The position numbers and the translations under genes were made by a program. From Methylorubrum extorquens (lineage in GTDB: Bacteria; Pseudomonadota; Alphaproteobacteria; Rhizobiales; Beijerinckiaceae): a DNA stretch of 32,000 nt. The notes under the pieces are model-generated. The model ran no database searches and was not told the DNA's origin. It saw only the letters and a program-made list of their open reading frames with translations. Where the stretch lies: positions 4,680,001 through 4,712,000 of the forward strand of contig LT962688.1 in assembly GCA_900234795.1 (NCBI GenBank), in the 5' to 3' direction. Shown in pieces: positions 13,803 to 32,000 of this stretch (its first letter is position 1; each line of letters opens with the position of its first letter).

Positions 13803-13880
13803 CGTCATCTCACCGTGTCGGCTCGTGGCGACCCTTGGCGGAGAGCGCCGCACCCCATGGCGGAGCGACCGGGTGCAGCG

Positions 13881-15263: not shown

Positions 15264-15266
15264 GGC

Positions 15267-17030
15267 TCAGCCCGCGCTACGTTGGATTTCGGACAGCCTC
15301 TCGTTCTCGGGCATCGCGCGACCGCCGGTCGCGACCAGCGCCGGAACCGGGCGCGGCCCGGAAACCTGGGTGAGGATCTGATCCGCCGGGCCCGAAGCGC
15401 GGAGCGTTCCGCCCTCCAGCATCAGGATCTGATCGGCGCCCGCCAGCAGGCTCACCTTGTGCGTGACGATCACAACCGTCGTCCCCCGCTCTCGAAGGTC
15501 CGCCACCGCCCGCATCAGCGCGGCCTCGCCGGCTTGGTCGAGGCTGGCATTCGGCTCGTCGAGGACGACCAAGCTCGGGTCCCCGTACATCGCCCGCGCC
15601 AGGGCGATGCGCTGACGCTGGCCGCCGGAGAGGCCGTGCCCGCCCGATCCGATCCGGGTGTTGTAGCCGTCCGGCAGAGCCTGGATCAGGTCGTGGCAGC
15701 CCGCGCGTTGCGCCACCGAGACGATGGCGGCGTCGTCCTGGGTGTCGAAGCGCGCGATGTTCTGCGCCACCGTGCCGTCGAACAATTCAACGTCCTGCGG
15801 CAGGTATCCGAGATGCCGGCCGAGCGCCTGCGGGTCCCAGTGCCGGAGGTCGGCTCCGTCGATGCGCACCGCGCCGGAGGTGATGGGCCAGACGCCGGTG
15901 ATCGCGCGGACCAGGGTCGATTTCCCGGCCGCACTCGGACCGATGATGCCGACGACGCTGCCGGGCTCCAGCCGCACGCTGACATCGTGGAGAATGGCCG
16001 TCGGCGAGCCCGGCGCCGCCACGACCAAATTCTCGGTCTCGATCAGACCGCGCGGACGCGGCAGCATCACGCGCTGCGGTTCGAGGCCGATGCGCCCCAC
16101 GATGTCCGCCAGCCGGGCATAGCTGCGCCGGGCCGCCGTGAAGCTCTTCCAATGCCCGACGACCGCCTCGATGGGCGCGAGCGTCCGGCCCATGATGATG
16201 GAAGCCGCGATCATCGAGCCGGCAGAGATCTCGCCATGGATGGCGAGGTAGGCGCCGACACCGAGGACCATCGTCTGCAGGAACATGCGCGTGAACTTCG
16301 TCGCCGCGGTGATGAGGCCGGCGCGATCGCTCGCCCGGGCCTGCAGCCGAATCGCCTCGTCGTGACGCCGACGCCACCGGGACCGCAAGGCGCCGAGCAT
16401 GCCCATGGCGCGCAGAACCTCGCCCCCTCGCATGGTCGCGCGGGCCTGCTCGCCCGCTTCTCGGGCCGCTTGGCTCGCCACGTCGAGGGGCCGCCGGGTC
16501 GTGAGATCGGTCAGGAGCGTGAGCCCCAGGAGCGTGCCGCCCCCGAGCAACGCCATCCAGCCGAACCACGGATGGAGGATGAAGCAGGCCATCAGGAACA
16601 GCGAGGCCCAGGGCAGGTCGCAGAGCGCCAGGATCGCGCCGCCCGTGAGGAACTCACGCAGGACATCGACATCGCGAAGGATCGTTTCGTGCCCGGCGCG
16701 CGGCTTGAGCAATGCGGCCCTGTGAACGATCTCGAAGACTGGTCCGGCAACCTTTCGATCGAAGATCATCCCGCCCCGCACCAACAGGCGCGAACGAAGC
16801 ATTTCGAGGACGGCATAGACGGCGAGCGCGAAGGCCGCGATGCCCGTGATGCCGAGGAGCGTCGCCTCGTTCCGGCTCGAGAGGACGCGATCGTAGACCT
16901 GCAGCATATACAGGGGACCGGCGAACAGAAGCAGGTTCGTGAAGAAGGCGAAGACGAACACCGTCATCAGAACGGGGCGGATCGCCCGCAGCCCATCCTT
17001 CAAGACGGACTCGGCCACACGATCGCTCAT
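15267..17030 (-). CDS. type I secretion system ABC transporter (permease + ATPase), PrtD/AprD/HasD type without an N-terminal C39 peptidase domain
   Basis: 587 aa. The N-terminal half has 6 TM segments and starts directly with FFTNLLLFAGPLYMLQVYDRVL. Walker A GPSAAGKST, signature LSGGQRQR, Walker B LVVLDEP. RBS GGGAGG lies before ATG 17030. Confidence 0.9.
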   Translation of the reverse strand: MSDRVAESVLKDGLRAIRPVLMTVFVFAFFTNLLLFAGPLYMLQVYDRVLSSRNEATLLGITGIAAFALAVYAVLEMLRSRLLVRGGMIFDRKVAGPVFEIVHRAALLKPRAGHETILRDVDVLREFLTGGAILALCDLPWASLFLMACFILHPWFGWMALLGGGTLLGLTLLTDLTTRRPLDVASQAAREAGEQARATMRGGEVLRAMGMLGALRSRWRRRHDEAIRLQARASDRAGLITAATKFTRMFLQTMVLGVGAYLAIHGEISAGSMIAASIIMGRTLAPIEAVVGHWKSFTAARRSYARLADIVGRIGLEPQRVMLPRPRGLIETENLVVAAPGSPTAILHDVSVRLEPGSVVGIIGPSAAGKSTLVRAITGVWPITSGAVRIDGADLRHWDPQALGRHLGYLPQDVELFDGTVAQNIARFDTQDDAAIVSVAQRAGCHDLIQALPDGYNTRIGSGGHGLSGGQRQRIALARAMYGDPSLVVLDEPNASLDQAGEAALMRAVADLRERGTTVVIVTHKVSLLAGADQILMLEGGTLRASGPADQILTQVSGPRPVPALVATGGRAMPENERLSEIQRSAG

Positions 17031-18171: not shown

Positions 18172-18885
18172 TCAGGCCGGCACCTTGGTGGAAGGCGTGC
18201 TCAGCCGCTCCATCAAGTAGGAGCGAGCACGGCTTACCCGGCTCTTCACCGTACCGGTCTGGCAGCCCATGACCTCCGCGGCCGCTTCGTAAGTCAGGCC
18301 CTGCGCACCGACGAGAAGCAGCGCTTCGCGTTGGGGGGCCGGTAGCCGCGCGATGTAGGACAGGACGACCTGAAGGTCCGAGCCATGCTCCTGTGCCGCC
18401 AGCGCAACCAGTTGGCCCGCCATGACACCGTCCACGTCCTCCACCTCACGCCTGTGCTTGCGTCGCTCGGTGTAAAAGTGATTGCGGAGGATGGTGAACA
18501 GCCACGCTTTCAGATTCGTGCCTGGCACGAACCGATCCTGATTGGCCCACGCTTTCAGCACGGCCTCCTGCACGAGATCGTCGGCCCGTGCAGCACTTCC
18601 AGCGAGCGACTGCGCGAACACCTGCAGCGCCGGAAGTGCTGCCGTGAGCCCCGCGCGAAAGGCTGCGTCGCGCTCACTCGCCAGGGGCGCGAGAGCACTC
18701 TCCAGAACCCGCGTGAGATCAAGCAAATGCTGCGGCGCACCTGAAACGACGATTTCGAGATAAGTCGCCTGCAACTGAGCTCCGATGTGCTTCTGCACCG
18801 CGAAGGGCAGCCGGGCAGCTCCCGCTTTCCCTTCCGGATCCGAGCAAACCGGACCGAGTCCGCTTGCAATCAGCATGTCGATCAA
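18172..18885 (-). CDS. ECF (group IV) sigma-70 factor with an N-terminal NepR-like anti-sigma motif fused in frame
   Basis: Region 2 is DDLVQEAVLKAWANQDRFVPGTNLKAWLFTILRNHFYTERRKHRRE. The region 4 HTH is LPAPQREALLLVGAQGLTYEAAAEVMGCQTGTVKSRVSRAR. The N-terminal extension contains IGAQLQATYLEIVVSGAPQHLLDLTRVLE. Start is TTG 18885 (AAGGA 7 nt upstream) or ATG 18876. The longer ORF to 19194 is antisense to the paralogue gene and low complexity. Confidence 0.8.
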   Translation of the reverse strand: MIDMLIASGLGPVCSDPEGKAGAARLPFAVQKHIGAQLQATYLEIVVSGAPQHLLDLTRVLESALAPLASERDAAFRAGLTAALPALQVFAQSLAGSAARADDLVQEAVLKAWANQDRFVPGTNLKAWLFTILRNHFYTERRKHRREVEDVDGVMAGQLVALAAQEHGSDLQVVLSYIARLPAPQREALLLVGAQGLTYEAAAEVMGCQTGTVKSRVSRARSYLMERLSTPSTKVPA

Positions 18886-19045
18886 CCCACGTTCCTTCTC
18901 GGAGCGAGCGGCTGAGAGATGCCTGAGCCAGCTCCTCCCGCCGTACAGTGAACATCTAACTCGCGAACCTCGGGGATCGATCCATTCCGTCGGCGCGTTC
19001 GGGGTTGCGCTCGGAGTAGCGTTGAGAGCTTGCACGGTCGAAGTG

Positions 19046-19279
19046 ATGACATGCCCGGTGACGTATCGAGTCGTTGACTGTCCGGATGGTCGGTTCGCGG
19101 TCGTCGTCGTGGCTGCATCGGGTGCTGCGTACTGGCGCAACGGATTGCTCACGCTCGCAGAGGCAGAGGCTTGCGTCGAGGATCTCCGCGCCATCCTGGC
19201 GCACTGCGGCGCGGCGCTCGCGTGCTACGACAATACGCAAGACATTCAAACGGAGCGCTGGCCGCGCTCGCTGAGGTAG
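19046..19279 (+). CDS. small hypothetical protein (77 aa), paralogue of 17748..17963
   Basis: ATG 19046 within ORF 18785..19279. The product MTCPVTYRVVDCPDGRFAVVVVAASGAAYWRNGLLTLAEAEACVEDLRAILAHCGAAL... aligns with the 17748..17963 product. Divergent from the ECF sigma gene. Confidence 0.5.
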   Translation: MTCPVTYRVVDCPDGRFAVVVVAASGAAYWRNGLLTLAEAEACVEDLRAILAHCGAALACYDNTQDIQTERWPRSLR

Positions 19280-19541
19280 GTGGCCTGCGCGGGGGCTGCA
19301 ATTTCCTCGTAAGTGCACTGAGTAGCCTGCTTCAGCCGTGGACAGCCGCACGTCAGCCGGAAGAGCCCATTCTCGGCATGGAGCAGAAGCGGACAGAGGT
19401 GGCATAAGGTGTCCTTGGGCCGAAGTAGGCCTCGTAGCTCTCCGGCGACGGGCCAGGTTTCAGCCGGTTGCTTCCCCTGCCGCGATGGAGAAACTTGGCG
19501 GAGAAATTTGGCCCGGACCGTGCCTCACCTCAGATCACCGC

Positions 19542-20438
19542 ATGTTCGATTGGAACGACCTCACCTTCTTCCTGGAGTTGGCCCGGCATGGCCGGCTGAT
19601 GCCGGCCGCGCGTCGGCTCAAGGTCGATAATACGACGGTCAGCCGTCGCATTGCGGAGTTGGAGCGGGGGCTCGACACGAAACTGTTCCAGCGCTGCTCC
19701 GACGGCTTCCTGCTGACCGAGGCCGGCCACAAGCTCTTCGTGATCGCGGAGGCGATCGAACAGAAGATGCTGTCCGTGCCGGACGAACTCGGCCTCTCGG
19801 ATGGAGCCGAGCCCGCAGGACGCGTGCGTGTTGCCAGCATGGAAGGCATCGCCGCGTTCTACCTGTCGGCCAAGTTCGCCGAGTTCGCCGCCGCCATGCC
19901 CGGCATCGTGATTGAACTCGTCACGGAGCGGCACCTCATCAACCTGACCAAGCGCGAGGCCGACATCTCGGTGTCCTTCGTGCCGCCCCAGGGACCGCGC
20001 CTCAAGGTGCGGCGGGTCGGCGAGTTCCGCTTGGCCCTGTTCGGGGCGGAACGCTACTTCGCCACGCATGGCCGACCGACGACGCGCGCCGACCTTCAGG
20101 ACCACGATTTCGTGGACTACGTCGATGATCTCGTGGCGATCGAGCCGGTGCATTGGCTGCTCGAAGTCCTGAAACCGACGAACGTGGTCTTCCGCTCCAC
20201 CAGCATGGCCGCCCAGCAGACGGCCGTCGCCGCCGGGGCGGGGCTCGGCCTGCTGCCGCTTTTTTCAGCAAAAACCAACCCGGCGCTCATCCCCATCCTG
20301 GCGGACGATGTGGTGGTGCAGCGCGAACTCTATCTCGGTGTTCACGAGGATATCGAGCATGCCGGCCGGATCCGCGTCGTGACACGCTTCCTGGCCGACC
20401 TGTTCTCAAAGGAGGCAGCGTACTTGAACCGGTTTTAG
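19542..20438 (+). CDS. LysR-family transcriptional regulator
   Basis: MFDWNDLTFFLELARHGRLMPAARRLKVDNTTVSRRIAELERGL is a typical LysR N-terminal wHTH, followed by a substrate-binding domain. The start was chosen at ATG 19542 because LysR proteins begin at the HTH; the ORF track extends to 19338. Confidence 0.85.
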   Translation: MFDWNDLTFFLELARHGRLMPAARRLKVDNTTVSRRIAELERGLDTKLFQRCSDGFLLTEAGHKLFVIAEAIEQKMLSVPDELGLSDGAEPAGRVRVASMEGIAAFYLSAKFAEFAAAMPGIVIELVTERHLINLTKREADISVSFVPPQGPRLKVRRVGEFRLALFGAERYFATHGRPTTRADLQDHDFVDYVDDLVAIEPVHWLLEVLKPTNVVFRSTSMAAQQTAVAAGAGLGLLPLFSAKTNPALIPILADDVVVQRELYLGVHEDIEHAGRIRVVTRFLADLFSKEAAYLNRF

Positions 20439-20540
20439 GCAGGTCACGGCAAGAATGCAGCGGGCGTTGCGGATTTTCCACCTTCGCGACGCGGACGGCC
20501 TCTGTTGCAAATGCGGCATCCCGCTTCAGGAGCCGTGTCG

Positions 20541-21650
20541 ATGTCCGTCCAATACCCGAAGTTCAAGGCGGCCGCCTGCCACGTCGCCTCGGTCTTCCTC
20601 GACAGCATCGCTTCCGCTGAGAAGGCCGTTGCGCTGATCGGTGAGGCCGCCCGCGCGGGCGCCGACCTCGTGGTCTTTCCCGAGGGCTACATGCCGGGCT
20701 TCCCACTTTGGGCGGCCCTACGGGCGCCGATCCACAACCACGATCTGTTCAAGCGCCTCGCGGCCCAGTCCGTGCGCCTGGACGGCCCGGAGATCAGTGC
20801 GGTCCGCGCCGCCGCCCAGCGCCACGGCGTGCTCGTCTCGCTCGGGTTCAGCGAGAGCACCGAGGCCAGCGTCGGCTGCCTGTGGAACGCGAACGTGCTG
20901 ATCGGCCGCGACGGAGCGATCCTCAACCACCACCGCAAGCTCGTGCCGACCTTCTACGAAAAGCTCATCTGGGCGAACGGCGACGCCCGGGGCCTGCGCG
21001 TGACGCGCACCGAGATCGGCCGCGTCGGCATGCTGATCTGCGGTGAGAACACCAATCCGCTGGCCCGGTACACGCTGATGGCGCAGGGCGAGCAGGTCCA
21101 CATCTCGACCTACCCGCCAGCCTGGCCGACCCGCCCGCCGGGAGAGAGCGCCGCCTACGACCTAAAACGGGCCATCGAGATCCGCGCCGGCGCGCATGCC
21201 TTCGAGGCCAAGGTGTTCAACATCGTCTGCTCCGCCGTCCTCGACTCGGCCGCCAGGGCCACCCTCTGCGACGGGGACGCTGCCCTCGCCGAGCTCGTCG
21301 AGCGGACCCCCGCGGGCGTGTCCATGGTCCTCGACCCCACCGGCTCGCATGTCGTGGAGCCGCACCAGGGGGACGAGACGATCGTCTACGCCGACATCGA
21401 CGTCGAGGCCTGCGTCGAGCCCAAGCAGTTCCACGACGTCGTCGGCTACTACAACCGCTTCGACATCTTCCGCCTCCATGTCGACCGCACGCCGCGCGAG
21501 CCGATCAGCTTCGACGCGGCCGTCCGGCCGTCGGGAGTCGCCGCCGACGGCGTCGATGGGTTCGAGGCCGTCGATCCGGATGGTGCCCGCGCACAGCCCG
21601 GCCCCAGCGAGCCGGCGCCGGCCCCGCCGCTTCGCCGCGCAGGCCACTGA
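20541..21650 (+). CDS. carbon-nitrogen hydrolase, nitrilase/cyanide-hydratase branch
   Basis: CAGGAG at 20527-20532, then ATG 20541. Glu-Lys-Cys triad contexts: VVFPEGYMPGFP, HHRKLVPT, MLICGENTNPLARYTLMAQGEQVHISTYP. Pro/Ala-rich C-terminal tail. Confidence 0.85.
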   Translation: MSVQYPKFKAAACHVASVFLDSIASAEKAVALIGEAARAGADLVVFPEGYMPGFPLWAALRAPIHNHDLFKRLAAQSVRLDGPEISAVRAAAQRHGVLVSLGFSESTEASVGCLWNANVLIGRDGAILNHHRKLVPTFYEKLIWANGDARGLRVTRTEIGRVGMLICGENTNPLARYTLMAQGEQVHISTYPPAWPTRPPGESAAYDLKRAIEIRAGAHAFEAKVFNIVCSAVLDSAARATLCDGDAALAELVERTPAGVSMVLDPTGSHVVEPHQGDETIVYADIDVEACVEPKQFHDVVGYYNRFDIFRLHVDRTPREPISFDAAVRPSGVAADGVDGFEAVDPDGARAQPGPSEPAPAPPLRRAGH

Positions 21651-21758
21651 GACGGTTCGGGCGCGGCCGAGCCTCGAAGGCGACGCCGCGCCGGCTCCGG
21701 AGGCTTCGGCCTCCCGGAAGTGTTCGCAAAATCTCGCACGCATGGACGGAGGTGCAGC

Positions 21759-22055
21759 ATGCTTTCCCCCGATAGAGTGGCCCCTCGCGAGGAGGCCGAG
21801 GCGATTGCACGACTGTCGCGAACGCGATCGCGCGTGGCGGTCGTACTGAGCCTCGTGATGATCACGATGTATTTTGGGTTCATGACGATGTTCGCCTTCG
21901 CCAAGACTGCGATGGGCACGATCCTCATGCCCGGTTTGTCGCTCTGCATCCTGCTCGGTGCGGGGGTAATCGTCGGATCGTTTGTCCTTTGTCTAGTCTA
22001 CGTCGTCTGGGCGAACCGGTTCTACGACCCGGCCGTGCGCCGCATCATGAGCTGA
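21759..22055 (+). CDS. DUF485 (YjcH-like) small membrane protein
   Basis: GGAGG at 21747-21751, then ATG 21759. 98 aa with two TM segments and the typical position immediately upstream of an ActP-type symporter. Confidence 0.8.
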   Translation: MLSPDRVAPREEAEAIARLSRTRSRVAVVLSLVMITMYFGFMTMFAFAKTAMGTILMPGLSLCILLGAGVIVGSFVLCLVYVVWANRFYDPAVRRIMS

Positions 22056-22065
22056 GGAGCGAACC

Positions 22066-23634
22066 ATGCAGGCCGCCAACAACCCCCTCGCCGTCACGTT
22101 CTTCTTCATCTTCATGGCGCTGACGCTCGGCATCACCTACTGGGCCGCCCGGCGCACGCGCACCACGGAGCAGTTCTTCGCCGCCGGAGGACAGATCACG
22201 GCCTGGCAGAACGGCTGGGCCCTCGCGGGCGACTTCCTCAGCGCGGCCGCGCTGCTGGGCATTGCCGGCATCATCACGTCGCATGGCTTCGACGGCTTGA
22301 TCTACTCCATCGGCTTCCTGGTCGGCTGGCCGATCATCTCGTTCCTGATCGTCGAACCGCTGCGCAACCTGGGCAAGTTCACCTTCGCCGACGTCGTCGC
22401 CTACCGCTTGCGGCAGCGCCCGGTGCGGATGGCCGCCGCCATCGGCACCCTGACCGTGATCCTGCTCTACCTGATCGCCCAGATGGTCGCGACGGGCTCG
22501 CTGATCAAACTTCTGTTCGGCCTGCCCTACACCGCCTCGGTCATCGTGGTCGGCACCGCCATGCTCATTTACGTGATCTTCGGCGGCATGCTGGCGACCA
22601 CCTGGGTTCAGGTGATCAAGGCGGTGCTCCTTTCGCTGGGCGGTCTCGTTCTGGCGCTCCTCGTGCTCGCCCATTTCGAGATGAACCCGCTGCGCCTGTT
22701 CTCGGCAGCGGCCGACAAGTACGGCGAGCGCGTGCTCCAGCCGGGCTCCAAGGTCGCGGGAAGCGGGTGGGACGCGATCTCGCTCGGCGTCGGGCTGATG
22801 TTCGGCACGGCCGCGCTGCCGCACATCCTGATGCGCGCCTTCACGGTGCCGGATGTGAAGGAGGCCCGGATGTCGATCCTCTACGCCACCGGCATCATCG
22901 GCTCGTTCCACCTCCTCGTCTTCGTGATCGGCTTCGGGGCGATGGTTCTCGTCGGGCCCGAGGCCGTCACGAAGGCGGGCGGCGGCGGCAACATGGCAGC
23001 GCCGTTGCTCGCCCTCACGGTCGGCGGCAACGGGTTCTTCGGCTTCATCTGCGCCGTCGCCTTCGCGACCATGCTGGCGGTCGTCGCGGGCCTGACGCTC
23101 TCCGGTGTCGCGACGGTCTGCCACGATCTCTGGGTCAACGTGGTGCGCAACGGCCATGCCCCGGAGCGTGAGCAGCTCACCGTTGCCCGGATCGCGACGG
23201 TCGCCATCGCGGTCCTGGCGGTAGTGCTCGGGATCGTCTTCGAGGGCCAGAACGTCGCCTTCATGGCAGGGCTGGCTTTTGCCGTCGCCGCGGCCGCCAA
23301 CTTCCCGGCCCTGCTGCTGTCGATCACGTGGAAGCGGTTCACGACGGCAGGCGCGGTCGCCAGCATCCTGATCGGCACGTTCGCCTCGCTGCTGCTGATC
23401 AGCCTCTCCCCCACGATCCAGGTCGATGTGCTGGGGCGGAGCCTCGCGGAGGTCTCGCAGGCCTGGTGGTTCGTCCCGATGAAGAACCCGGCCCTCATCA
23501 GCATGCCGCTGTCCTTCCTGGTGGCGATTGGCGTCTCGCTCGTGACCAAGGAGGATGCGGCCGACAGCACCTTCCAGGAGATGCGCCGGAGGATCATGTT
23601 CGGTGCGTCGCGGACGGCCTACGCTGGCCGCTGA
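22066..23634 (+). CDS. actP: solute:sodium symporter family cation/acetate (monocarboxylate) symporter
   Basis: GAGGAG at 22054-22059, then ATG 22066. 522 aa polytopic protein with SSF-type sequence (AAGGQITAWQNGWALAGDFLSAAALLGIAG..., ...LPHILMRAFTVPDVKEARMS...). Paired with a DUF485 gene, as in yjcH-actP. Confidence 0.85.
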   Translation: MQAANNPLAVTFFFIFMALTLGITYWAARRTRTTEQFFAAGGQITAWQNGWALAGDFLSAAALLGIAGIITSHGFDGLIYSIGFLVGWPIISFLIVEPLRNLGKFTFADVVAYRLRQRPVRMAAAIGTLTVILLYLIAQMVATGSLIKLLFGLPYTASVIVVGTAMLIYVIFGGMLATTWVQVIKAVLLSLGGLVLALLVLAHFEMNPLRLFSAAADKYGERVLQPGSKVAGSGWDAISLGVGLMFGTAALPHILMRAFTVPDVKEARMSILYATGIIGSFHLLVFVIGFGAMVLVGPEAVTKAGGGGNMAAPLLALTVGGNGFFGFICAVAFATMLAVVAGLTLSGVATVCHDLWVNVVRNGHAPEREQLTVARIATVAIAVLAVVLGIVFEGQNVAFMAGLAFAVAAAANFPALLLSITWKRFTTAGAVASILIGTFASLLLISLSPTIQVDVLGRSLAEVSQAWWFVPMKNPALISMPLSFLVAIGVSLVTKEDAADSTFQEMRRRIMFGASRTAYAGR

Positions 23635-25837: not shown

Positions 25838-27454
25838 GTGCGCCGCGGAATGGATGGAAGCCTCAAGGGCGCGTCGAGCACACACTGGCGTACGCAGGAG
25901 ATGTTCCTCGTCCAGGAGGTCATGAACCTGATCGGCAAGGGCCTGCGCCTGGATCAGGTCGCGCGGGAGATGCTGCATCTCCTGTCCGAGATCGTCGGAC
26001 TGAACCGGGGACGGATCGTCCTGAAAGACCCCGACGGCAATGGACACCGCATTGCCTACGCCTATGGGCTCACCCGCGAAGAGGTCGCTCGGGGCCGCTA
26101 CGCACCGGGCGAGGGCATTACCGGACGCGTTATCCAGGACGGTCACCTCATCATCGTGCAGGACATTGACAAGGACCCGACCTTCCTTGGGCGGGCGGTG
26201 GCGCGGGCGCAGCTTCCCCGCGGCGCCGTGTCGTTCCTGGCGCTGCCGATCCGCGTTGATCACCGGACGGTCGGCGCCATCGCCTGCCACCGTATCCGCC
26301 ACCGGGAGCGAGCGCTCTCGGACGACCTCACCATCCTGCGCATCATCGCCACGATGGTCAGCCAGTTGCTGACCTTGAACGAGCGGGTGGAGCAGAAGAC
26401 GCGGGCGCTCGAGGAGCACAACGACATGCTGGCGCGCGAGCTGCGCATCAAGCGCGCCCGCTACGGCATCATCGGAACCTCGCCCGCGCTGCTGCGCGCC
26501 CTCGCCCAAGTGGAGAAGGTCGCGAGCGCGACCGCGAGCGTGCTGCTGCTCGGCGAGTCCGGAACCGGCAAGGAACTCTTCGCCCGAGCGCTCCACCTCG
26601 CGAGCCCGCGGCGCGACCGGCCCTTCATCAAGGTCAATTGCGCGGCGATCCCCGACAGCCTGTTCGAATCCGAGCTATTCGGGCACGAGCGCGGCGCCTT
26701 CACCGGGGCTGTCGATGCGCGGGCCGGCTGGTTCGAGCAGGCGAGCGGCGGCACGATCTTCCTCGACGAGATCGGCGAGATGCCGGCGGTCCTCCAGACC
26801 AAGCTGCTGCGCACCCTGCAGGAGGGGACGGTCGTGCGCCTCGGCGGCAAGCGCGAGATCCGGGTCGATATGCGCCTCGTCGCCGCGACGAACCGGGATC
26901 TCGCCACCGAGGTCGCCCATGGCCGCTTCCGAGAGGACTTGTTCTACCGCCTCAACGTCGTGCCGATCACCCTGCCTCCGCTGGCGGAGCGGCGCAGCGA
27001 CATCCCCGATCTGGTGCTGCACTTCCTCACCCAGGCGAACCAGAACAACCAGCGCAACGTCAACCTGACCCAGGGCGCGGTCACGCATCTCGCCCGCCAG
27101 TCCTGGCCGGGTAACATCCGCCAGCTCGCCAACTTCATCGAGCGGCTCGTGCTGCTGGCAAGCGAAGGTGTCTTGGACGTCGAGGACGTGCGTCCGATGC
27201 TCGAAGGCGCCGTCGTCACGGCGCCCCCGCTGCTCGCTCCCGCCTCGGCCCCGTTCTTCTCGCCCGAACGGGAAGCGGCGTTGCGCGCGATGGGCACCGT
27301 GCGCCCCTACCTGCCGGCCGACTCGCACGGCCACGAACAGTTGCGCATGGCCCTGGCCCAGGCCGGCGGCAACAAAACGCGGGCGGCCCAGCGGCTCGGG
27401 CTCACTGAGCGCCAATTCTCCTATCGCTGGCGCAAGCTCCAGCCGGCCCCCTGA
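25838..27454 (+). CDS. sigma54-dependent transcriptional activator (bacterial enhancer-binding protein), GAF + AAA+ + Fis-type HTH
   Basis: GAF-like N-terminus (LLSEIVGLNRGRIVLKD...GEGITGRVIQDGHLIIVQDIDKDPTF). Walker A GESGTGKE, GAFTGA loop (ERGAFTGA), Walker B IFLDEIGE, WPGNIRQL. C-terminal HTH GGNKTRAAQRLGLTERQFSYRWRKL. The start is uncertain (GTG 25838, ATG 25850 or ATG 25901). Confidence 0.9.
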   Translation: MRRGMDGSLKGASSTHWRTQEMFLVQEVMNLIGKGLRLDQVAREMLHLLSEIVGLNRGRIVLKDPDGNGHRIAYAYGLTREEVARGRYAPGEGITGRVIQDGHLIIVQDIDKDPTFLGRAVARAQLPRGAVSFLALPIRVDHRTVGAIACHRIRHRERALSDDLTILRIIATMVSQLLTLNERVEQKTRALEEHNDMLARELRIKRARYGIIGTSPALLRALAQVEKVASATASVLLLGESGTGKELFARALHLASPRRDRPFIKVNCAAIPDSLFESELFGHERGAFTGAVDARAGWFEQASGGTIFLDEIGEMPAVLQTKLLRTLQEGTVVRLGGKREIRVDMRLVAATNRDLATEVAHGRFREDLFYRLNVVPITLPPLAERRSDIPDLVLHFLTQANQNNQRNVNLTQGAVTHLARQSWPGNIRQLANFIERLVLLASEGVLDVEDVRPMLEGAVVTAPPLLAPASAPFFSPEREAALRAMGTVRPYLPADSHGHEQLRMALAQAGGNKTRAAQRLGLTERQFSYRWRKLQPAP

Positions 27455-27470
27455 CCCGGCTCCGCCAAAC

Positions 27471-27498
27471 CCGACAATGTCGACAAAGTGTCGACATT
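27471..27498. promoter_or_regulatory. palindromic upstream activating sequence, copy 1 (candidate enhancer for the adjacent bEBP)
   Basis: CCGACAATGTCGACAAAG-TG-TCGACATT. Dyad AATGTCGACA / TGTCGACATT at 27476-27498. The first 18 nt are identical to 30807-30824. It starts 120 bp upstream of the -24 element. Confidence 0.6.
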
Positions 27499-27590
27499 CA
27501 TCAACGTTTCATCCGGAGGGGACGTTCGATAATTTTACTAAGTAGTTGAAAAACAGCAGCAATATGAAATAGTCGCATGGGCGGCCGATT

Positions 27591-27606
27591 TGGCACCCGC
27601 TTTGCG
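27591..27606 (+). promoter_or_regulatory. sigma54 (RpoN) -24/-12 promoter, P1
   Basis: TGGCAC-CCGCT-TTGCG matches the consensus TGGCAC-N5-TTGCW with correct GG/GC spacing. It is 60 nt upstream of ATG 27666. An AT-rich tract at 27520-27575 lies between the UAS and the promoter. Confidence 0.7.
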
Positions 27607-27665
27607 CAAGTCCCTCCGAGCCGGCCCCGACGAAGACGGAGGCAGGGCACGAACAGGAGTTACCG

Positions 27666-28217
27666 ATGAGCGCGAGCGCCGCCCCCACCACCGTCACGAC
27701 CTACTTGCGTCCGATCGACCGGGACGGCCTGATGCAGTTCGCCGAGAAAGGCCGCTGCAATCCGGGCTCGCGTGGCACCAACAAGGTGCACACCGTCGTC
27801 GACGGGCAGTACCGTACCCTCAGCTATGTCGGCGACCACCAGCCGGTCGTGGTGGACGAGCCCTTGCACCTGTTCGGCGAGAACACGGCGCCGGCGCCGG
27901 GTGAGATCGTGCTCTCGGCCCTCGGCGGCTGCCTCGCGGTCGGCATCACCGCCGTCGCGACTTGGAAACAGGTGCGCCTCTCATGCCTCGAACTGCATCT
28001 CGAGGGCGACATCGGCAACCCCGCCGCCTGGGGCGCGGGCGGCGCCGAGAAGCTGCCGGAAGACATGGGATTCCAGGAGATCCGCGTGGCCGTGACCATC
28101 GAGGGCGATGCGAGCCGCGAGGAACTCGACGAGATCGTGCGCCACGCGAATGTCTACTCGCCGGTGGCCAACTCCATGCGGAACCCGATCGCCTTCAAGA
28201 TCGGCTTGGCTGGCTGA
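27666..28217 (+). CDS. OsmC/Ohr-family protein
   Basis: AGGAG at 27655-27659, then ATG 27666. OsmC-fold signature around APAPGEIVLSALGGCLAVGITAV, a second Cys in VRLSCLELHLEG, and C-terminal HANVYSPVANSM. Confidence 0.8.
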   Translation: MSASAAPTTVTTYLRPIDRDGLMQFAEKGRCNPGSRGTNKVHTVVDGQYRTLSYVGDHQPVVVDEPLHLFGENTAPAPGEIVLSALGGCLAVGITAVATWKQVRLSCLELHLEGDIGNPAAWGAGGAEKLPEDMGFQEIRVAVTIEGDASREELDEIVRHANVYSPVANSMRNPIAFKIGLAG

Positions 28218-28224
28218 CCCGCAG

Positions 28225-28246
28225 GGCGGGACCGAACGGTCCCGCC
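28225..28246 (+). other. intercistronic GC-rich hairpin
   Basis: GGCGGGACC (28225-28233), loop GAAC, GGTCCCGCC (28238-28246). Perfect 9-bp stem, 8 nt after the OsmC stop, with no T-tract. The next gene's RBS GAGGAG is at 28263-28268. Confidence 0.4.
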
Positions 28247-28276
28247 GCCTTCCCCGATCCTTGAGGAGACTGCACG

Positions 28277-29470
28277 ATGTCGAGCGCCCTCGCTCTGCGG
28301 CCGGCGGATGATGCCGTCGGGCCGGTGCCGCCTGCCACGCCGAACCGCCCCGATTGGACCGACGAGGCCGTCCTCGCCGGAACGAAGGCCATCGCCGATG
28401 GTCCCTTGAGCGCCGCGGCGGCGGAGATCGACCGCGGCGCCTACCCGCTCGAGATCCTGGGCAGGCTCGGTGGCGCGGGCGCACTCGCCGTGCATCTCGA
28501 CCGGCACGGGGGGCGCTTCGGCCTCTCGGTGGCTGCCATGCAGGCGGCGAGCCAGACCTGCGGCGCCACCGGCTTCCTGATGTGGTGCCACGACGTGTGC
28601 GGCCTGTACCTGGAGCAGTCGGGCAATTCGGCTCTGACCGGCGCGGTGCTCGACGATCACGCCGCGGGCCGCAGCTTCGGAGGCACGGCGCTCTCCAACC
28701 CGATGAAGGCCTTCGCCGGGATCGAGCCGATCCTGCTGCGCGCCCGCCGAGTCCCCGGCGGCTACCGGGTCAGCGGCATGCTGCCCTGGGTCAGCCATAT
28801 CGGGCCGGGCCAGTATTGCGGCGCCATTGCGGGTGTCGTCGGCGCCAACGACACGATCAGCCACGAGATCATGTTCGTGCTGGCTTGCGACCGTGCCGAG
28901 TTGCGGCCCTGCCCGCACTTCTCCGGCATGGAGGGCACCAGCACCTGGGGGGTTCGACTCGACGACCTCTTCGTCGGGCATGACGACCTCATCGCCGATC
29001 CGGCGCGCCCCTTCATCGGACGCATCCGCAGCGCCTTCATCCTGCTTCAATGCGGCATGGGCCTCGGCGTGGCCGAAGGGAGCCTCGATGCCATGCTGGC
29101 GGTCGAGGAGACGCTGGGCCACGTCAATCAGTTCCTCGACGATCGGCCCGACGCCATCGCGGCCGAACTCACCGAGCTGCGCGCCCGCGTGATGCGGCTC
29201 GCCGAGACGCCCTATGACGGTGCCACCGACTACCTGATCGACGTTCTCGACGCCCGCGCCCAGGTCTCCGAACTGGCTTTGCGCGCCTCTCAATCGGCGC
29301 TGCTGCACCAGGGCGCCCGGGGCTACCTGATGTCGGTCGCACCCCAGCGCCGGATCCGCGAGGCGCATTTCGTCGCCATCGTCACCCCCGCGATCAAGCA
29401 TCTGCGCTGGGAGATGGCCCGGCTGTCGCGGGAGACGCAGCCCACCGTGACGGAAGGGAGCCGGGCATGA
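28277..29470 (+). CDS. acyl-CoA dehydrogenase-fold flavoprotein (possibly a group-D-type flavin monooxygenase/oxidase)
   Basis: 397 aa with ACAD-like three-domain layout: N-terminal helical part, a middle beta domain around [14 protein letters not shown]...[14 protein letters not shown], and a C-terminal helical bundle [14 protein letters not shown]...[18 protein letters not shown]. The call is from overall sequence character, not a search. Confidence 0.65.
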
Positions 29471-30801
29471 GCCTTCCTGAGCCCACCGACGGCCTCGGCC
29501 CCTGGCAGCTTTTCCTCTGCCGGGCCTGCGGCCTGATCTACGACGAGGGCGAGGGCGACCCCGATAGCGGCCTGCCGCCCGGCACCCGCTTCGCCGACAT
29601 CCCCGATGACTGGGCCTGCCCGATCTGCGGCGTCACCAAGTCGGATTTCGAGCCCTATCAGCGGCGTGCGCATGTCGCGCCCGTACCGGCCCCGACGGTG
29701 CCGCAGCGCCGGCCCGGCGTGGTGATCGTCGGCGGCGGAATCGGCGGATGGAGCGTCGCTGAGGCGATCCGGGCCGAGGATGCGGGGGTGCCCATCACTC
29801 TGGTGAGCGCGTGCGACGGCAGCCTCTACCACAAGCCGGAACTCTCGGTGGCCCTCGGACGCGGCCTGACACCCGACGCGCTCCGCCGTGAGACGGGCGC
29901 CGCGGCGGCGGCACGCTTGTCCCTGCGCCTGATGGCCGACACGGTCGCGGTCGGCCTCTCACCCGAGCGCCACGCCTTACGCACGACGCGCGGCACGCTC
30001 CCCTACACCCATCTCGTCCTCGCCCACGGGGCGCGGCCAGCGTTGCCGGATGGCCTCGACCCCGCCCTGTGCTGGCGGGTCAACGACCTTGCCGCGTGGT
30101 CTTCGCTCCATGCCGAACTCGCCCGCGGCCCCCGTACGGTCGCGGTGATCGGTGCCGGCATGGTCGGCTGCGAACTGGCCGAGGATCTGGCCCGCGCCGG
30201 ACATGCCGTCACGCTTCTCGGGGCCAAGGCGCTGCCACTGCCCGAACTCCTGCCGGAGCAGGCCGGACGGCGCCTGCTGGCGGGCCTCGAAGGCGTGGGT
30301 GTCCGCTACCGCGGCGAGAGCCTCGTGAGTGGTCTGAGCCGCCGGCCGGACGGCACCGTCGCGCTCGCCCTGTCGGACGGGACGAGCCTCGCCGCTGCGA
30401 CCGTGATCGCCGCGACCGGCCTCGCCACGCCCTCGCGCCTCGTGCGGGGAGCGGGCCTCGCCTTTGAGCGCGGCATCGTCGTCGATCCGGCGACCTTGCG
30501 CACGAGCGGGCCGGACATCTTTGCGCTCGGCGACTGCGTCAGCATAGCGGGGCGGCCCTGCCGCTTCATCGAGCCCATCGCCCGCCAAGCCGCGGTCATC
30601 GCGGACGCGATCCTCGGCCGGGCTCATCCGGGCTACGCGCACGCCGCCCCGGTCATCCGCCTGAAGACCCGCTCGGCGCCGATCGCGCTGCACGGCACCC
30701 CCGTCGCCGACCGCCCCTGGCACGTCGTCGAAGAGAGTGAGCACCGGCTCGCGATGGAGCAGCGGCAGGGCGGCGACGTCACCGCCTGGCTCGCGGCCTG
30801 A
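29467..30801 (+). CDS. rubredoxin domain fused to an FAD/NAD(P)-dependent pyridine-nucleotide-disulfide-family reductase (rubredoxin-reductase-like)
   Basis: ATG 29467 overlaps the upstream stop (ATGA). Rubredoxin knuckles CRACG ... CPICG with the typical [25 protein letters not shown] between them. Then GxGxxG twice ([24 protein letters not shown]) and a C-terminal ALGDC motif. Confidence 0.85.
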
Positions 30802-30806
30802 GCCTG

Positions 30807-30838
30807 CCGACAATGTCGACAAAGGATCGACATTGTCG
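30807..30838. promoter_or_regulatory. palindromic upstream activating sequence, copy 2
   Basis: CCGACAATGTCGACAAAG-GA-TCGACATTGTCG. Perfect 12-nt inverted repeat CGACAATGTCGA (30808-30819) / TCGACATTGTCG (30827-30838). It starts 110 bp upstream of the second -24 element. Confidence 0.6.
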
Positions 30839-30916
30839 AAGGCGCGAGAACCGACTGAGCCGTCCCCAGAGGCGGCAAGTCGCTGGCCGAAAAGCAGGAA
30901 TAAAAATTCCAGCGGT

Positions 30917-30932
30917 TGGCGCGACTGTTGCT
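30917..30932 (+). promoter_or_regulatory. sigma54 (RpoN) -24/-12 promoter, P2
   Basis: TGGCGC-GACTG-TTGCT with correct GG-N10-GC spacing. It is 34 nt upstream of ATG 30966, whose RBS GGAGA is at 30956-30960. Confidence 0.65.
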
Positions 30933-30965
30933 GAGAAATTCTTACTTGCCCTGCCGGAGACCGCG

Positions 30966-32000
30966 ATGGCCCCGTTCGACAATCCCTTCGATGCCAAACG
31001 CCGCTTCGCACGCGGCGGCTGCTCCTGCGGTTCGCATGCGTCCCAGGCCGCGCATGAGGCGGCCCTGCCAAGCGGGGACGCCGCAATCGAGCGGGTCGTC
31101 GAGGCGACGATGATGCGGGCCCTGTTTCCGCATCAGGCCGAGCGCCGCGCCTTCCTGCGCAGCGTCGGCCTCGCGACGGCGGCGGCGGCCGTCAGCCAGT
31201 TCCTGCCGACGAAATTCGTGGCCGAGGCCTTCGCCGAAGCGGGCAAGCCGGAGAAGACCGACCTCAAGATCGGCTTCATCCCGATCACCTGCGCCACGCC
31301 GATCATCATGGCCAAGCCCATGGGCTTCTATGAAAAGCAGGGCCTCAACGTCGATGTCGTGAAGACCGCCGGCTGGGCGGTCGTGCGCGACAAGACCCTG
31401 AACAAGGAATACGACGCCGCCCACATGCTGGCACCGATGCCGCTCGCCATCACGATGGGGCTCGGATCGAACCCTGTTCCGTTCGCCGTGCCAGCGATCG
31501 AGAACGTCAACGGGCAGGCAATCTGCCTCGCGAATAAGCACAAAGACAATCGCGACCCGAAGAATTGGAAAGGATTCAAGCTCGCGATTCCGTTCGATTA
31601 CTCGAATCACAACTACTTGTTGCGCTACTACCTCGCCGAGCACGGGATCGACCCCGACACCGACGTGCAGCTCCGCTCGGTGCCGCCGCCCGAGATGGTC
31701 GCGAACCTGCGCGCCGACAACATCGACGGCTTCCTCGCGCCCGACAACGTCGTCCAGCGCGCGGTCTATGACGGCGTCGGCTTCATCCACATCCTGTCGA
31801 AGGAGATCTGGGACGGGCATCCCTGCTGCTCCTTCTCCGTGGCGCAGGACACGATCCGCGACATGCCGAACGCGACGGCCGCGATGCTGCGCGCCATCCT
31901 CCAGGCGACCGCCTACGCCTCGAAGGCGGAGAACCGCAAGGAGATCGCCGCCGCCATCGCGCCCGCGAACTACCTCAACCAGCCGCTCACCGTGGTGGAG
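30966..32000 (+). CDS. ABC transporter substrate-binding protein, NrtA/CmpA/SsuA (NitT/TauT) family, with a long N-terminal extension before the Tat motif; 3' end outside the window
   Basis: Translated by hand; the frame is open from ATG 30966 to the window end (345 codons). MAPFDNPFDAKRRFARGGCSCGSHASQ...ERRAFLRSVGLATAAAAV (Tat-like), then LKIGFIPITCATPIIMAKPMGFYEKQGLNVDVVK...NIDGFLAPDNVVQRAV, typical of NrtA-like proteins. It is absent from the ORF track because no stop lies in the window. Confidence 0.85.
   Translation, partial: MAPFDNPFDAKRRFARGGCSCGSHASQAAHEAALPSGDAAIERVVEATMMRALFPHQAERRAFLRSVGLATAAAAVSQFLPTKFVAEAFAEAGKPEKTDLKIGFIPITCATPIIMAKPMGFYEKQGLNVDVVKTAGWAVVRDKTLNKEYDAAHMLAPMPLAITMGLGSNPVPFAVPAIENVNGQAICLANKHKDNRDPKNWKGFKLAIPFDYSNHNYLLRYYLAEHGIDPDTDVQLRSVPPPEMVANLRADNIDGFLAPDNVVQRAVYDGVGFIHILSKEIWDGHPCCSFSVAQDTIRDMPNATAAMLRAILQATAYASKAENRKEIAAAIAPANYLNQPLTVVE

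Follow-up and report, generated by a model that had tools for sequence, protein, structure and literature searches.

A GAF-domain activator, paired enhancers and a conserved redox trio in Methylorubrum extorquens: a sigma-54 regulon tentatively linked to nitrogen scavenging from pseudohalide anions

Genes and regulatory elements of the locus

The 32,000-nucleotide stretch of Methylorubrum extorquens DNA considered here (assembly GCA_900234795.1, contig LT962688.1, forward-strand positions 4,680,001 to 4,712,000; referred to as the window and numbered from its first letter) ends in a group of five plus-strand genes accompanied by two matching enhancer elements and two sigma-54-type promoters, which very probably form a regulon under one dedicated activator. 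The first gene (25838–27454, plus strand) encodes a bacterial enhancer-binding protein (bEBP) of 538 amino acids, in which a GAF domain is followed by a sigma-54 AAA+ domain and a Fis-type helix-turn-helix (HTH). The Pfam families GAF, Sigma54_activat, AAA_lid_14 and HTH_8 are all matched and the GAFTGA motif is present, which confirms the activator that an earlier note, drawn from the letters of this DNA, had placed directly upstream. Three genes on the same strand, here called osmC, acad and rdRed and together the redox trio, come next. They encode an OsmC-fold protein of 183 amino acids (27666–28217; Pfam OsmC, PF02566, 67.8 bits), a divergent flavoprotein-like protein of 397 amino acids with the acyl-CoA dehydrogenase (ACAD) fold (28277–29470; weak Pfam Acyl-CoA_dh_N), and a 444-amino-acid fusion of a rubredoxin (CxxC...CxxC) with an NAD(P)H:rubredoxin reductase, RdRed (29467–30801; Rubredoxin, PF00301, 73.4 bits; Pyr_redox_2, PF07992, 137 bits), the start of which overlaps the acad stop codon. 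The last gene, cynA (30966–32000, plus strand), is cut by the window end; its 5' part encodes a periplasmic anion-binding protein of the CynA/NrtA family, with a Tat-like signal and an N-terminal Cys motif (Pfam NMT1_2, 279.6 bits). The domains first read into this cargo (OsmC, weak ACAD, rubredoxin-reductase and importer) were all recovered by Pfam.

Two upstream activating sequences (UAS1 and UAS2) precede the trio and cynA. The 18-mer CCGACAATGTCGACAAAG occurs in exact copies at 27471–27488 and 30807–30824, and no further match with up to three mismatches was found in the 32-kb window (chance expectation 0.01). Two nucleotides further on, each copy continues into TCGACATT. The 28-nt repeat so formed is identical between the copies at 26/28 positions, and its second copy forms a perfect 12-nt inverted repeat (30808–19 / 30827–38) with a 7-nt spacer; the 18-mer pair and its strong dyad symmetry had been described correctly. 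The basic unit of the element is the 9-bp palindrome GACAWTGTC, perfect copies of which start in the 32 kb only at 27473, 30809 and 30829, all inside the two enhancers. UAS1 (27472–27498) carries GACAATGTC at 27473–81 and two TGTCGACA octamers (27478–85 and 27489–96) 11 bp apart, and UAS2 (30808–30838) carries, within the inverted repeat, two perfect GACAWTGTC units (30809–17 and 30829–37) 20 bp apart.

Downstream of each enhancer lies a predicted promoter with -24 GG and -12 GC elements at canonical spacing: P1 (TGGCACCCGCTTTGC; 27591–27605, plus strand) for osmC-acad-rdRed, with a predicted start at about 27617, and P2 (TGGCGCGACTGTTGC; 30917–30931, plus strand) for cynABD, with a predicted start at about 30943. 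The element-to-promoter offsets of 120 bp (P1) and 110 bp (P2) were reproduced. These two sites are the only matches to TGGCNC-N5-TTGC in the window, where 0.34 would be expected and two are reached in 3 of 100 shuffles. An AT-rich tract (27520–27575) separates UAS1 from P1, as had been observed; its GC fraction is 0.28 at 27525–27574 against 0.68 for the whole window, and it holds on the minus strand a site resembling that of integration host factor (IHF), TTTCAACTACTTA at 27539–27551, one mismatch away from WATCAANNNNTTR. No comparable tract or IHF-like site lies ahead of P2. IHF-like sites are enriched between UAS and promoter in the relatives: 22 of 72 related loci have one, against 9 of 405 random segments. 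The Rfam search of the whole window gave no match, hence no riboswitch or known RNA in the leaders; intrinsic terminators between the units were represented only by weak pattern matches, no more frequent than in shuffles, and no rpoN gene was identified among the annotated open reading frames (ORFs) of the window.

Conservation of the activator, element and promoter

With the ACAD-like protein as query, a scan limited to a single genome from each species yielded 80 related loci at 63–97% identity from Methylobacterium/Methylorubrum, Xanthobacter, Azorhizobium, Acidocella, Paraburkholderia, Pandoraea, Cupriavidus, Azoarcus, Zoogloea, Azotobacter, Halomonas and many metagenome-assembled genomes (MAGs); a wider comparison took in about 90 related loci of alpha-, beta- and gammaproteobacteria, with gene orders from tblastn maps. 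OsmC, ACAD and RdRed form the invariant core across these loci, and a GAF-bEBP orthologue is adjacent and upstream of osmC in 46 of the 65 loci with enough flank. A TGGCAY-N5-TTGC promoter precedes osmC in nearly all related loci, 66–150 bp ahead of the start codon, and in alpha-, beta- and gammaproteobacterial relatives arrays of the GACAWTGTC type lie 90–122 bp upstream of that promoter, as for example the overlapping units ACAATGTCGACAATGTCGACATTGTCG in Paraburkholderia and GACATTGTC...GACATTGTC...GACAATGTC in Marinobacter. Of the 55 loci with a neighbouring bEBP gene, 43 have at least two TGTCGACA-type sites; for loci lacking such a neighbour the count is 0 of 19. Perfect GACAWTGTC is enriched 68-fold in the 400 bp upstream of osmC (1.49 vs 0.022 per kb). 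The arrays track the adjacent bEBP and sit at a fixed distance from the -24/-12 site, which is strong comparative evidence that the GAF-bEBP would bind the GACAWTGTC element and activate these promoters. The conservation of the promoter and the distribution of the arrays both strongly back the proposal that a single GAF-bEBP controls the two sigma-54 units by way of one palindromic enhancer type common to both.

A different view denies the element any regulatory role and takes the -24/-12 matches as chance: the repeat would be dispersed and REP-like, a case that the earlier note had raised, or would stem from a recent duplication in place. The shuffles give this view some footing, and the scans for element and promoter pattern covered the 32-kb window. 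On the other side stand the two copies per 32 kb and the behaviour of the arrays in about 1.4 Mb of related DNA, where they occur almost only before osmC or cynA, nearly always 90–122 bp upstream of a -24/-12 site (three strays were seen), and where the element sequence drifts between species with its palindrome units kept. The dispersed-repeat variant is ruled out within these data, and a repeat without regulatory role is extremely improbable.

The earlier two-promoter layout is real in the window, but it is not general. The second enhancer-promoter pair, before cynA, is confined to Methylobacterium/Methylorubrum loci; in most of the Methylobacterium/Methylorubrum relatives that carry the P2-like 15-mer, it is identical or near-identical and lies 47–51 bp before the mapped cynA start, with one outlier at 206 bp (L007). 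No promoter was found in the 100–190 bp gap between RdRed and cynA in beta- and gammaproteobacterial loci, and osmC-acad-rdRed-cynABDS, in places extended by genes for a persulfide dioxygenase (pdo) and a sulfite exporter (tauE), can therefore be taken there as one operon, its seven core genes transcribed from the osmC promoter.

The 19 loci without an adjacent bEBP still have a sigma-54 promoter and are presumably served by another activator. A group of MAGs of about 50% GC from Alcaligenaceae (L038, L050, L059, L061–L065, L072, L074, L075, L077 and L080) carries an isolated trio: its surroundings lack a bEBP and the cyn and sulfur genes, and often an Ldh_2/AllD-like gene lies upstream. Their sigma-54-type promoter (for example TGGCATGAAATTTGC) is found with no GACAWTGTC array; a different activator must serve the trio in these organisms.

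As for the identity of the activator, its best full-length model match is TIGR01817 (nifA), with 480.6 bits under a cut-off of 528.85. NifA sites have the form TGT-N10-ACA and NorR sites the form GT-N7-AC; read by eye, the window UAS does not fit the latter. Membership of the NifA family was rejected on the score and on the unlike UAS, and membership of the NorR family because the NorR model covers residues 134–527, leaving out the GAF domain, and because of the unlike UAS. The GAF-bEBP is a new bEBP subfamily with its own site, within an ordinary sigma-54 design.

The importer and its partner genes

Two NCBI assemblies (L081 and L082) have contigs with the gene order of the window. There the window genome continues after cynA with cynB and cynD, for a permease and an ATPase, then with the gene of an ArsR-type regulator and, further on, that of a P-type ATPase in the opposite orientation and YeeE-like genes. 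At the other end of the cluster, the segment 23709–25480, immediately upstream of the bEBP gene, holds two divergent genes, one for a DJ-1/PfpI protein (minus strand) and one for a DJ-1/AraC regulator of the GlxA type, and this pair is kept in L081. The full-length orthologue of the window substrate-binding protein (SBP) matches NrtA (2g29, 8e-51) and CmpA (2i48, 1e-49), and the permease passes the ntrB cut-off; the SBP matches the SsuA, TauA and SaoX models weakly, with 50 bits for SsuA against a cut-off of 163. The importer had been described as of the NrtA/SsuA type: the NrtA/CmpA part of this assignment holds (about 1e-50) and the SsuA part does not. The second unit is accordingly predicted, with support at the family level, to encode a CynA/NrtA-type ABC importer for cyanate-like anions.

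Genes of cyanate metabolism recur beside the trio in other species. Among the 61 loci with at least 5 kb of downstream sequence, CynA was present in 39 and cyanase (CynS) in 23; the cyanase of the relatives scores 223 bits with NF002773 and 146 bits with TIGR00673, both above the cut-offs. In most relatives the cyanase gene comes after those of the importer, as a rule in a single operon with the trio. PGAP annotation, which is independent of these maps, gives the order OsmC - ACAD - 'rubredoxin' - CmpA/NrtA - ntrB - ATPase - cynS - ... - sigma-54 regulator on a plasmid of Acetobacter ascendens, and sigma-54 regulator - OsmC - ACAD - FAD oxidoreductase - cynS on a plasmid of Marinobacter. The cargo had been called unassigned, and about half of it now maps to known cyanate assimilation (a CynA/NrtA importer, with cynS in relatives); the trio remains uncharacterised.

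A second group of partners handles sulfur. A persulfide dioxygenase (PDO)-like protein and/or TauE accompanies the trio in 28 of the same 61 loci, and the gene order varies, with at least six arrangements. The genes may follow RdRed, stand between RdRed and the promoter of cynA, come behind cynS (in either order) or precede the bEBP gene; in Xanthobacter they lie 2.2 kb downstream, and seven loci have them without any cyn genes. In Methylorubrum thiocyanatum DSM 11490 (L008) the order is bEBP-OsmC-ACAD-RdRed-PDO-TauE-CynABD. The co-operonic protein with a metallo-beta-lactamase (MBL) fold matches 4ysk/4ysl (9e-136), 4efz (7e-148) and the human ETHE1 persulfide dioxygenase (1e-27); 4ysk/4ysl, named 'Beta-lactamase domain protein' by its depositors, is presumably the persulfide dioxygenase of P. 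putida. The TauE/SafE membrane protein of the relatives matches PF01925 with 140 bits.

Distant relatives of the OsmC-ACAD pair, at 38–41% identity, were seen on a Pseudosulfitobacter plasmid (L089, 4797–10531) and a Methylocystis plasmid (L090, 4552–9107) in the order ABC ATPase - SBP - permease - OsmC - ACAD, followed in Pseudosulfitobacter by a rhodanese-type sulfurtransferase and a DsbA-like HCCA isomerase and adjoined in Methylocystis by a TetR gene. OsmC is replaced by an AhpD/CMD-family protein on pNP7-5 of Moraxella osloensis, from human skin (L085, 8172–15212), and in Neisseria gonorrhoeae (L088, 7416–9074) an AhpD/CMD-like CxxC protein is encoded next to a 38%-identical ACAD-like gene.

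The closest characterised parallel to the transporter unit is the cynFABDS cluster of Pseudomonas pseudoalcaligenes CECT5344, in which the sigma-54-dependent CynF is essential for cynABDS (Saez et al. 2019, PMC6627978). The N-terminus of CynF is a PAS-like segment, and the cynF-cynA spacer has repeats of the ACGAAATCTCGT type (PMC6627978, Fig. S1), none of which is present in the window. Two Methylobacterium species (L021 and L022) contain both arrangements. In each, a GAF-bEBP with GACAWTGTC sites precedes osmC-acad-rdRed-pdo, and a separate, divergent PAS-PAS CynF-like bEBP (L021, 13484–15379, minus strand) precedes cynABDS, with ACGAAnTTTCGT repeats, the site type of the Pseudomonas spacer, and TGGCACGCGGCTTGC (L021, about 15380–15480), and a -24/-12 promoter of its own. 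These two species are a natural case of regulon partition, and since the trio and cynABDS have separate regulators there, the ligand of the GAF protein is probably not cyanate itself. Orthology of the window bEBP with CynF was rejected (GAF and not PAS, no ACGAAATCTCGT repeats, and a CynF-type protein coexisting with it in these species); the window activator works like CynF but is not its orthologue.

The redox trio

The OsmC-like protein has Cys89 invariant in 80/80 homologues as its sole conserved cysteine. At the second cysteine position of OsmC/Ohr the residue is replaced (YSPVAN), so that the pair expected of a two-cysteine hydroperoxide reductase is missing, and the closest solved structure is a hypothetical protein (2opl, 6e-15).

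These features bear on one alternative in particular, that the locus is a plain cyanate-assimilation regulon in which the trio forms no cyanate but is a protective or maintenance module, with an OsmC/AhpD-type thiol peroxidase re-reduced via rubredoxin and an ACAD-like oxidoreductase acting against oxidative or carbamoylation damage while the cell grows on cyanate. CynABD and CynS are indeed the commonest partners of the trio, the cluster of the window genome has no sulfur genes, and the families exchanged in Moraxella and Neisseria, OsmC and AhpD/CMD, are both known as Cys-based hydroperoxide reductases. However, the resolving cysteine of OsmC/Ohr is missing, the characterised Pseudomonas cyn cluster functions without the trio (PMC6627978), and in L021 and L022 the trio and cynABDS are under different regulators; protection would also leave unexplained the PDO and TauE genes of 28/61 loci, the PDO loci without cyn genes and the rhodanese of the distant subfamily. 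We consider a protective role unlikely, though far from negligible.

The ACAD-like protein, 97–98% identical to Methylorubrum proteins, belongs to a compact family that stands apart from the ordinary ACADs and counts 124 clusters (E<=1e-30; 1.84 billion representatives searched), for which databases offer only generic names ('acyl-CoA dehydrogenase family protein', 'AidB-like'). Its AlphaFold2 model (pLDDT 84.9) aligns in Foldseek with ACADs at TM 0.75–0.80 and 15–21% identity, the best matches being short-chain ACADs and 3-sulfinopropionyl-CoA desulfinase (5ahs/5af7), and a faint model match to 3-sulfinopropanoyl-CoA desulfinase was also obtained; no DszC-type monooxygenase or SfnB-like structure was among the top 50 matches. 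The FAD-contact motifs, including LPWVSH, are invariant, and the protein probably binds FAD. The catalytic Glu is absent: the profile alignment runs ...REAHFVAI and then VTP where ACADs have YEG, and at the helix-G position used in IVD no carboxylate was seen in an alignment made by eye. Invariant residues include Cys95, Cys108, Cys181 and Cys212 and many His and Arg; three of the four cysteines, all but Cys181, are kept in the 38%-identical gonococcal protein. The four cysteines might hold an Fe-S cluster or another metal site, and a cluster would account for the rubredoxin partner; alternatively they may be catalytic.

Could such a flavoprotein be an oxygenase? A cyanide monooxygenase or oxidase, reduced via rubredoxin and passing its product from CN- to OCN- on to cyanase, would suit a trio that shares operons with cyanase and has an NADH-dependent electron-delivery module. 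We know of no gene for a cyanate-forming cyanide oxygenase, and the literature searched has nothing that ties these proteins to one. Yet cyanide holds no sulfur, and the recurrence of PDO, TauE and rhodanese is then unexplained; HCN diffuses freely and has no need of an anion ABC importer; and the fold neighbours of the ACAD-like protein are dehydrogenases and a desulfinase, not oxygenases. This explanation is improbable.

The earlier note had drawn an analogy with SfnR. Along that line the locus would scavenge organosulfur compounds or sulfonates in the manner of SfnR/SfnB systems, with an SsuA-like importer and an ACAD-like desulfurising enzyme that frees sulfite from an organic sulfur compound. 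The weak SsuA/TauA/SaoX matches of the SBP, the TauE, PDO and rhodanese genes of relatives, and the desulfinase matches of the ACAD-like protein in model and fold all lean that way. They are opposed by an SBP far nearer to NrtA/CmpA than to SsuA, by a permease above the nitrate-type ntrB cut-off, by operonic cyanase and sigma-54 control, which point to nitrogen and not sulfur limitation, and by the absence of a sulfonate monooxygenase or flavin reductase. We therefore give organosulfur scavenging little credence. The comparison with an SfnR-controlled ACAD monooxygenase proved loose only, the nearest folds being true ACADs and the desulfinase; the broader idea of nutrient scavenging (S or N) was right in spirit.

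The rubredoxin-reductase fusion retains the motif CRAC...CPIC and matches a rubredoxin reductase of known structure (PDB 2v3a, 2.3e-45). Its best NCBIfam match is NorW, with 213.8 bits below a cut-off of 392, and from this, from the NorR model, which the bEBP matches in its AAA+ and HTH portions, and from the adjoining nitrate/nitrite-type ABC transporter one might derive a nitrosative-stress module of the NorR/NorVW kind, in which the GAF-bEBP senses NO and the NorW-like reductase and rubredoxin deliver electrons. NorW, however, stays under its cut-off, and the NorR match lacks the GAF domain, whereas NifA matches over the full length. The locus has neither a flavodiiron nor a NorV protein, its UAS is unlike a NorR site, and the cyanase and PDO partners would go unexplained; an NO module is very unlikely.

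A tentative reading: scavenging of thiocyanate

Our leading interpretation, held with somewhat less than even confidence, is that the cell uses this sigma-54 regulon to obtain nitrogen from pseudohalide anions. The GAF-bEBP would bind the GACAWTGTC arrays some 120–130 bp ahead of both -24/-12 promoters, helped at P1 by an IHF-type bend, and, once its GAF domain has sensed a small ligand (an assumption), would turn on osmC-acad-rdRed from P1 and cynABD from P2. CynABD would import thiocyanate (SCN-) and/or cyanate (OCN-). The ACAD-fold flavoprotein would then be the catalyst, oxidising or oxygenating the sulfur of SCN-; the rubredoxin-reductase fusion would pass electrons one at a time between NAD(P)H and the flavin of this protein, in place of an electron-transferring flavoprotein (ETF) or a flavin reductase; and the single cysteine of the OsmC-like protein would take the sulfur as a persulfide, or trap an intermediate of the hypothiocyanite type. 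Cyanate would pass to cyanase and sulfur to persulfide dioxygenase, with the resulting sulfite leaving via TauE. PDO, TauE and cyanase are co-operonic in many relatives; in the window genome they lie elsewhere or are absent.

Conversion of SCN- to cyanate and Cys-bound sulfane sulfur by the trio is suggested by gene context, and we regard it as plausible while judging it rather less probable than its opposite. Since cyanase handles OCN- and PDO and TauE handle sulfane sulfur and sulfite, thiocyanate is the simplest compound that gives both products. Heterotrophs including Methylobacterium grow on SCN- as a nitrogen source (PMC5328954), and only two enzymatic SCN- pathways were recognised in December 2024 (bioRxiv 10.1101/2024.12.18.629290). 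Going further, the trio might be a third, flavin- and thiol-based thiocyanate system, the missing 'cyanate pathway' enzyme of heterotrophs such as M. thiocyanatum, with a dedicated GAF-bEBP sensor and wide distribution in plant-, soil- and possibly human-associated Proteobacteria; this extended claim is about a one-in-three prospect in our judgement. No paper linking these genes to heterotrophic thiocyanate use was found in the literature searched, nor did the literature on cyanate or thiocyanate with OsmC, acyl-CoA dehydrogenase, rubredoxin, PDO, sulfite exporter or flavin monooxygenase mention this trio.

Several observations weigh against thiocyanate as the substrate. PDO and TauE are both lacking in 33 of the 61 loci, and 14 of the 61 carry the trio alone, with no CynA, cyanase, PDO or TauE. 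In the window genome (L081/L082) no cynS, PDO or TauE gene lies within 5 kb after cynD, and the description of the regulon as self-contained is doubtful, as cyanase, persulfide dioxygenase and sulfite exporter are not next to the cluster. The distant OsmC-ACAD pairs occur without rubredoxin reductase and without cyanase, which indicates that the reductase may be accessory. The replacement of OsmC by AhpD/CMD proteins fits generic peroxide scavenging as well as it fits a sulfur carrier.

What can be said at different depths differs accordingly. If only the regulation holds, the locus defines a bEBP subfamily not described before, whose recognition element, the GACAWTGTC arrays, is clear and conserved, and it offers a case of regulon rewiring, in which Methylobacterium duplicated enhancer and promoter to capture cynABD and two species use a CynF-type regulator instead. 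The trio is in any event a set of conserved enzymes that await characterisation, and as a candidate for the cleavage of thiocyanate by heterotrophs it can be put to the test. If that candidate proves true, it would add a third enzymatic SCN- route beside thiocyanate hydrolase and the copper thiocyanate dehydrogenase, and give the ACAD fold new chemistry and a new electron partner, rubredoxin. It would also bear on the bioremediation of mining and coking effluents, on N and S cycling on Brassica-type plants, and perhaps on bacteria in thiocyanate-rich human secretions; such secretions are rich in both thiocyanate and hypothiocyanite, so that the AhpD-type loci may be relevant.

Other features of the window

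Some 2–6 kb upstream of the bEBP, at 19338–23634, lie genes for a LysR regulator, a carbon-nitrogen hydrolase (nitrilase/amidase-like, 137 bits), a DUF485 protein and an SSF (ActP-like) symporter, possibly another small nitrogen-compound unit that turns a nitrile or amide into an acid and ammonium. Before it, a 340-aa ORF on the minus strand (18172–19194) shows sigma-70 regions 2 and 4 of the ECF type and also matches PhyR_sigma2; it probably encodes an ECF sigma factor or a relative of PhyR, the N-terminus being predicted too long. Further upstream on the minus strand (9576–17030), a type I secretion pair, with an ABC exporter (15267–17030) and an HlyD-family protein (13881–15263), stands beside an ORF of 1425 aa (9576–13853) without a Pfam match, which may be a large secreted protein or a spurious ORF of high-GC DNA.

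Comparison with known systems

The system closest in proposed function is the Thiobacillus scn cluster, which likewise combines a degrading enzyme (ScnABC), an ABC transporter of the NitT/TauT type, sulfur-handling genes and cyanase (PMC5328954). Clusters of thiocyanate dehydrogenase (TcDH) also carry a sigma-54-responsive regulator, and the products proposed for the trio, cyanate and zero-valent sulfur, are those of TcDH. The proteins differ: ScnABC follows the carbonyl sulfide (COS) pathway and TcDH is a copper enzyme of the cyanate pathway, whereas the trio consists of an OsmC-fold protein, an ACAD-fold protein and a rubredoxin/FAD reductase whose function here is inferred. No nitrile-hydratase-type or copper-enzyme domain was found in the Pfam/NCBIfam content of the five window proteins and their annotated neighbours, a statement about domain content, as no direct sequence comparison with ScnABC or TcDH was made.

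With cynFABDS of Pseudomonas the locus shares a Fis-type sigma-54 activator and a -24/-12 promoter before a CynA/CynB/CynD ABC transporter, a Cys-containing N-terminal leader on CynA (PMC6627978), and, in the relatives of the window, a cyanase after the transporter; the Pseudomonas system is induced for nitrogen scavenging. It differs in the sensory domain (PAS-like in CynF, GAF in the window protein), in the sites (ACGAAATCTCGT repeats as against GACAWTGTC), in the divergent position of cynF relative to cynA, and in that Pseudomonas has no OsmC/ACAD/rubredoxin-reductase trio. The activator shares with NifA the domain order GAF, AAA+ (GAFTGA) and HTH and a predicted mode of action in which a palindromic UAS, bent towards the sigma-54 promoter by an IHF-type protein, serves as its upstream site; unlike NifA, its UAS would be the GACAWTGTC or TGT-N2-ACA arrays built of TGTCGACA units, and its targets are not nif genes.

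The SfnR/sfn and Dsz systems resemble the locus in sigma-54 control, an ACAD-fold enzyme, a dedicated NAD(P)H-dependent electron supplier and a role in nutrient scavenging, but the window has a rubredoxin-reductase fusion and not a flavin reductase, a transporter of the NrtA/CynA type, and a cyanase partner in relatives. Within the ACAD superfamily, the trio protein keeps the three-domain fold and the FAD-contact motifs, and is set apart by its 15–21% identity, the change from YEG to VTP, its four invariant cysteines, and rubredoxin instead of ETF as partner. For an enzyme of this fold that would act on sulfur, the 3-sulfinopropionyl-CoA desulfinase provides a precedent, being an ACAD-fold protein that carries out C–S chemistry without the catalytic Glu.

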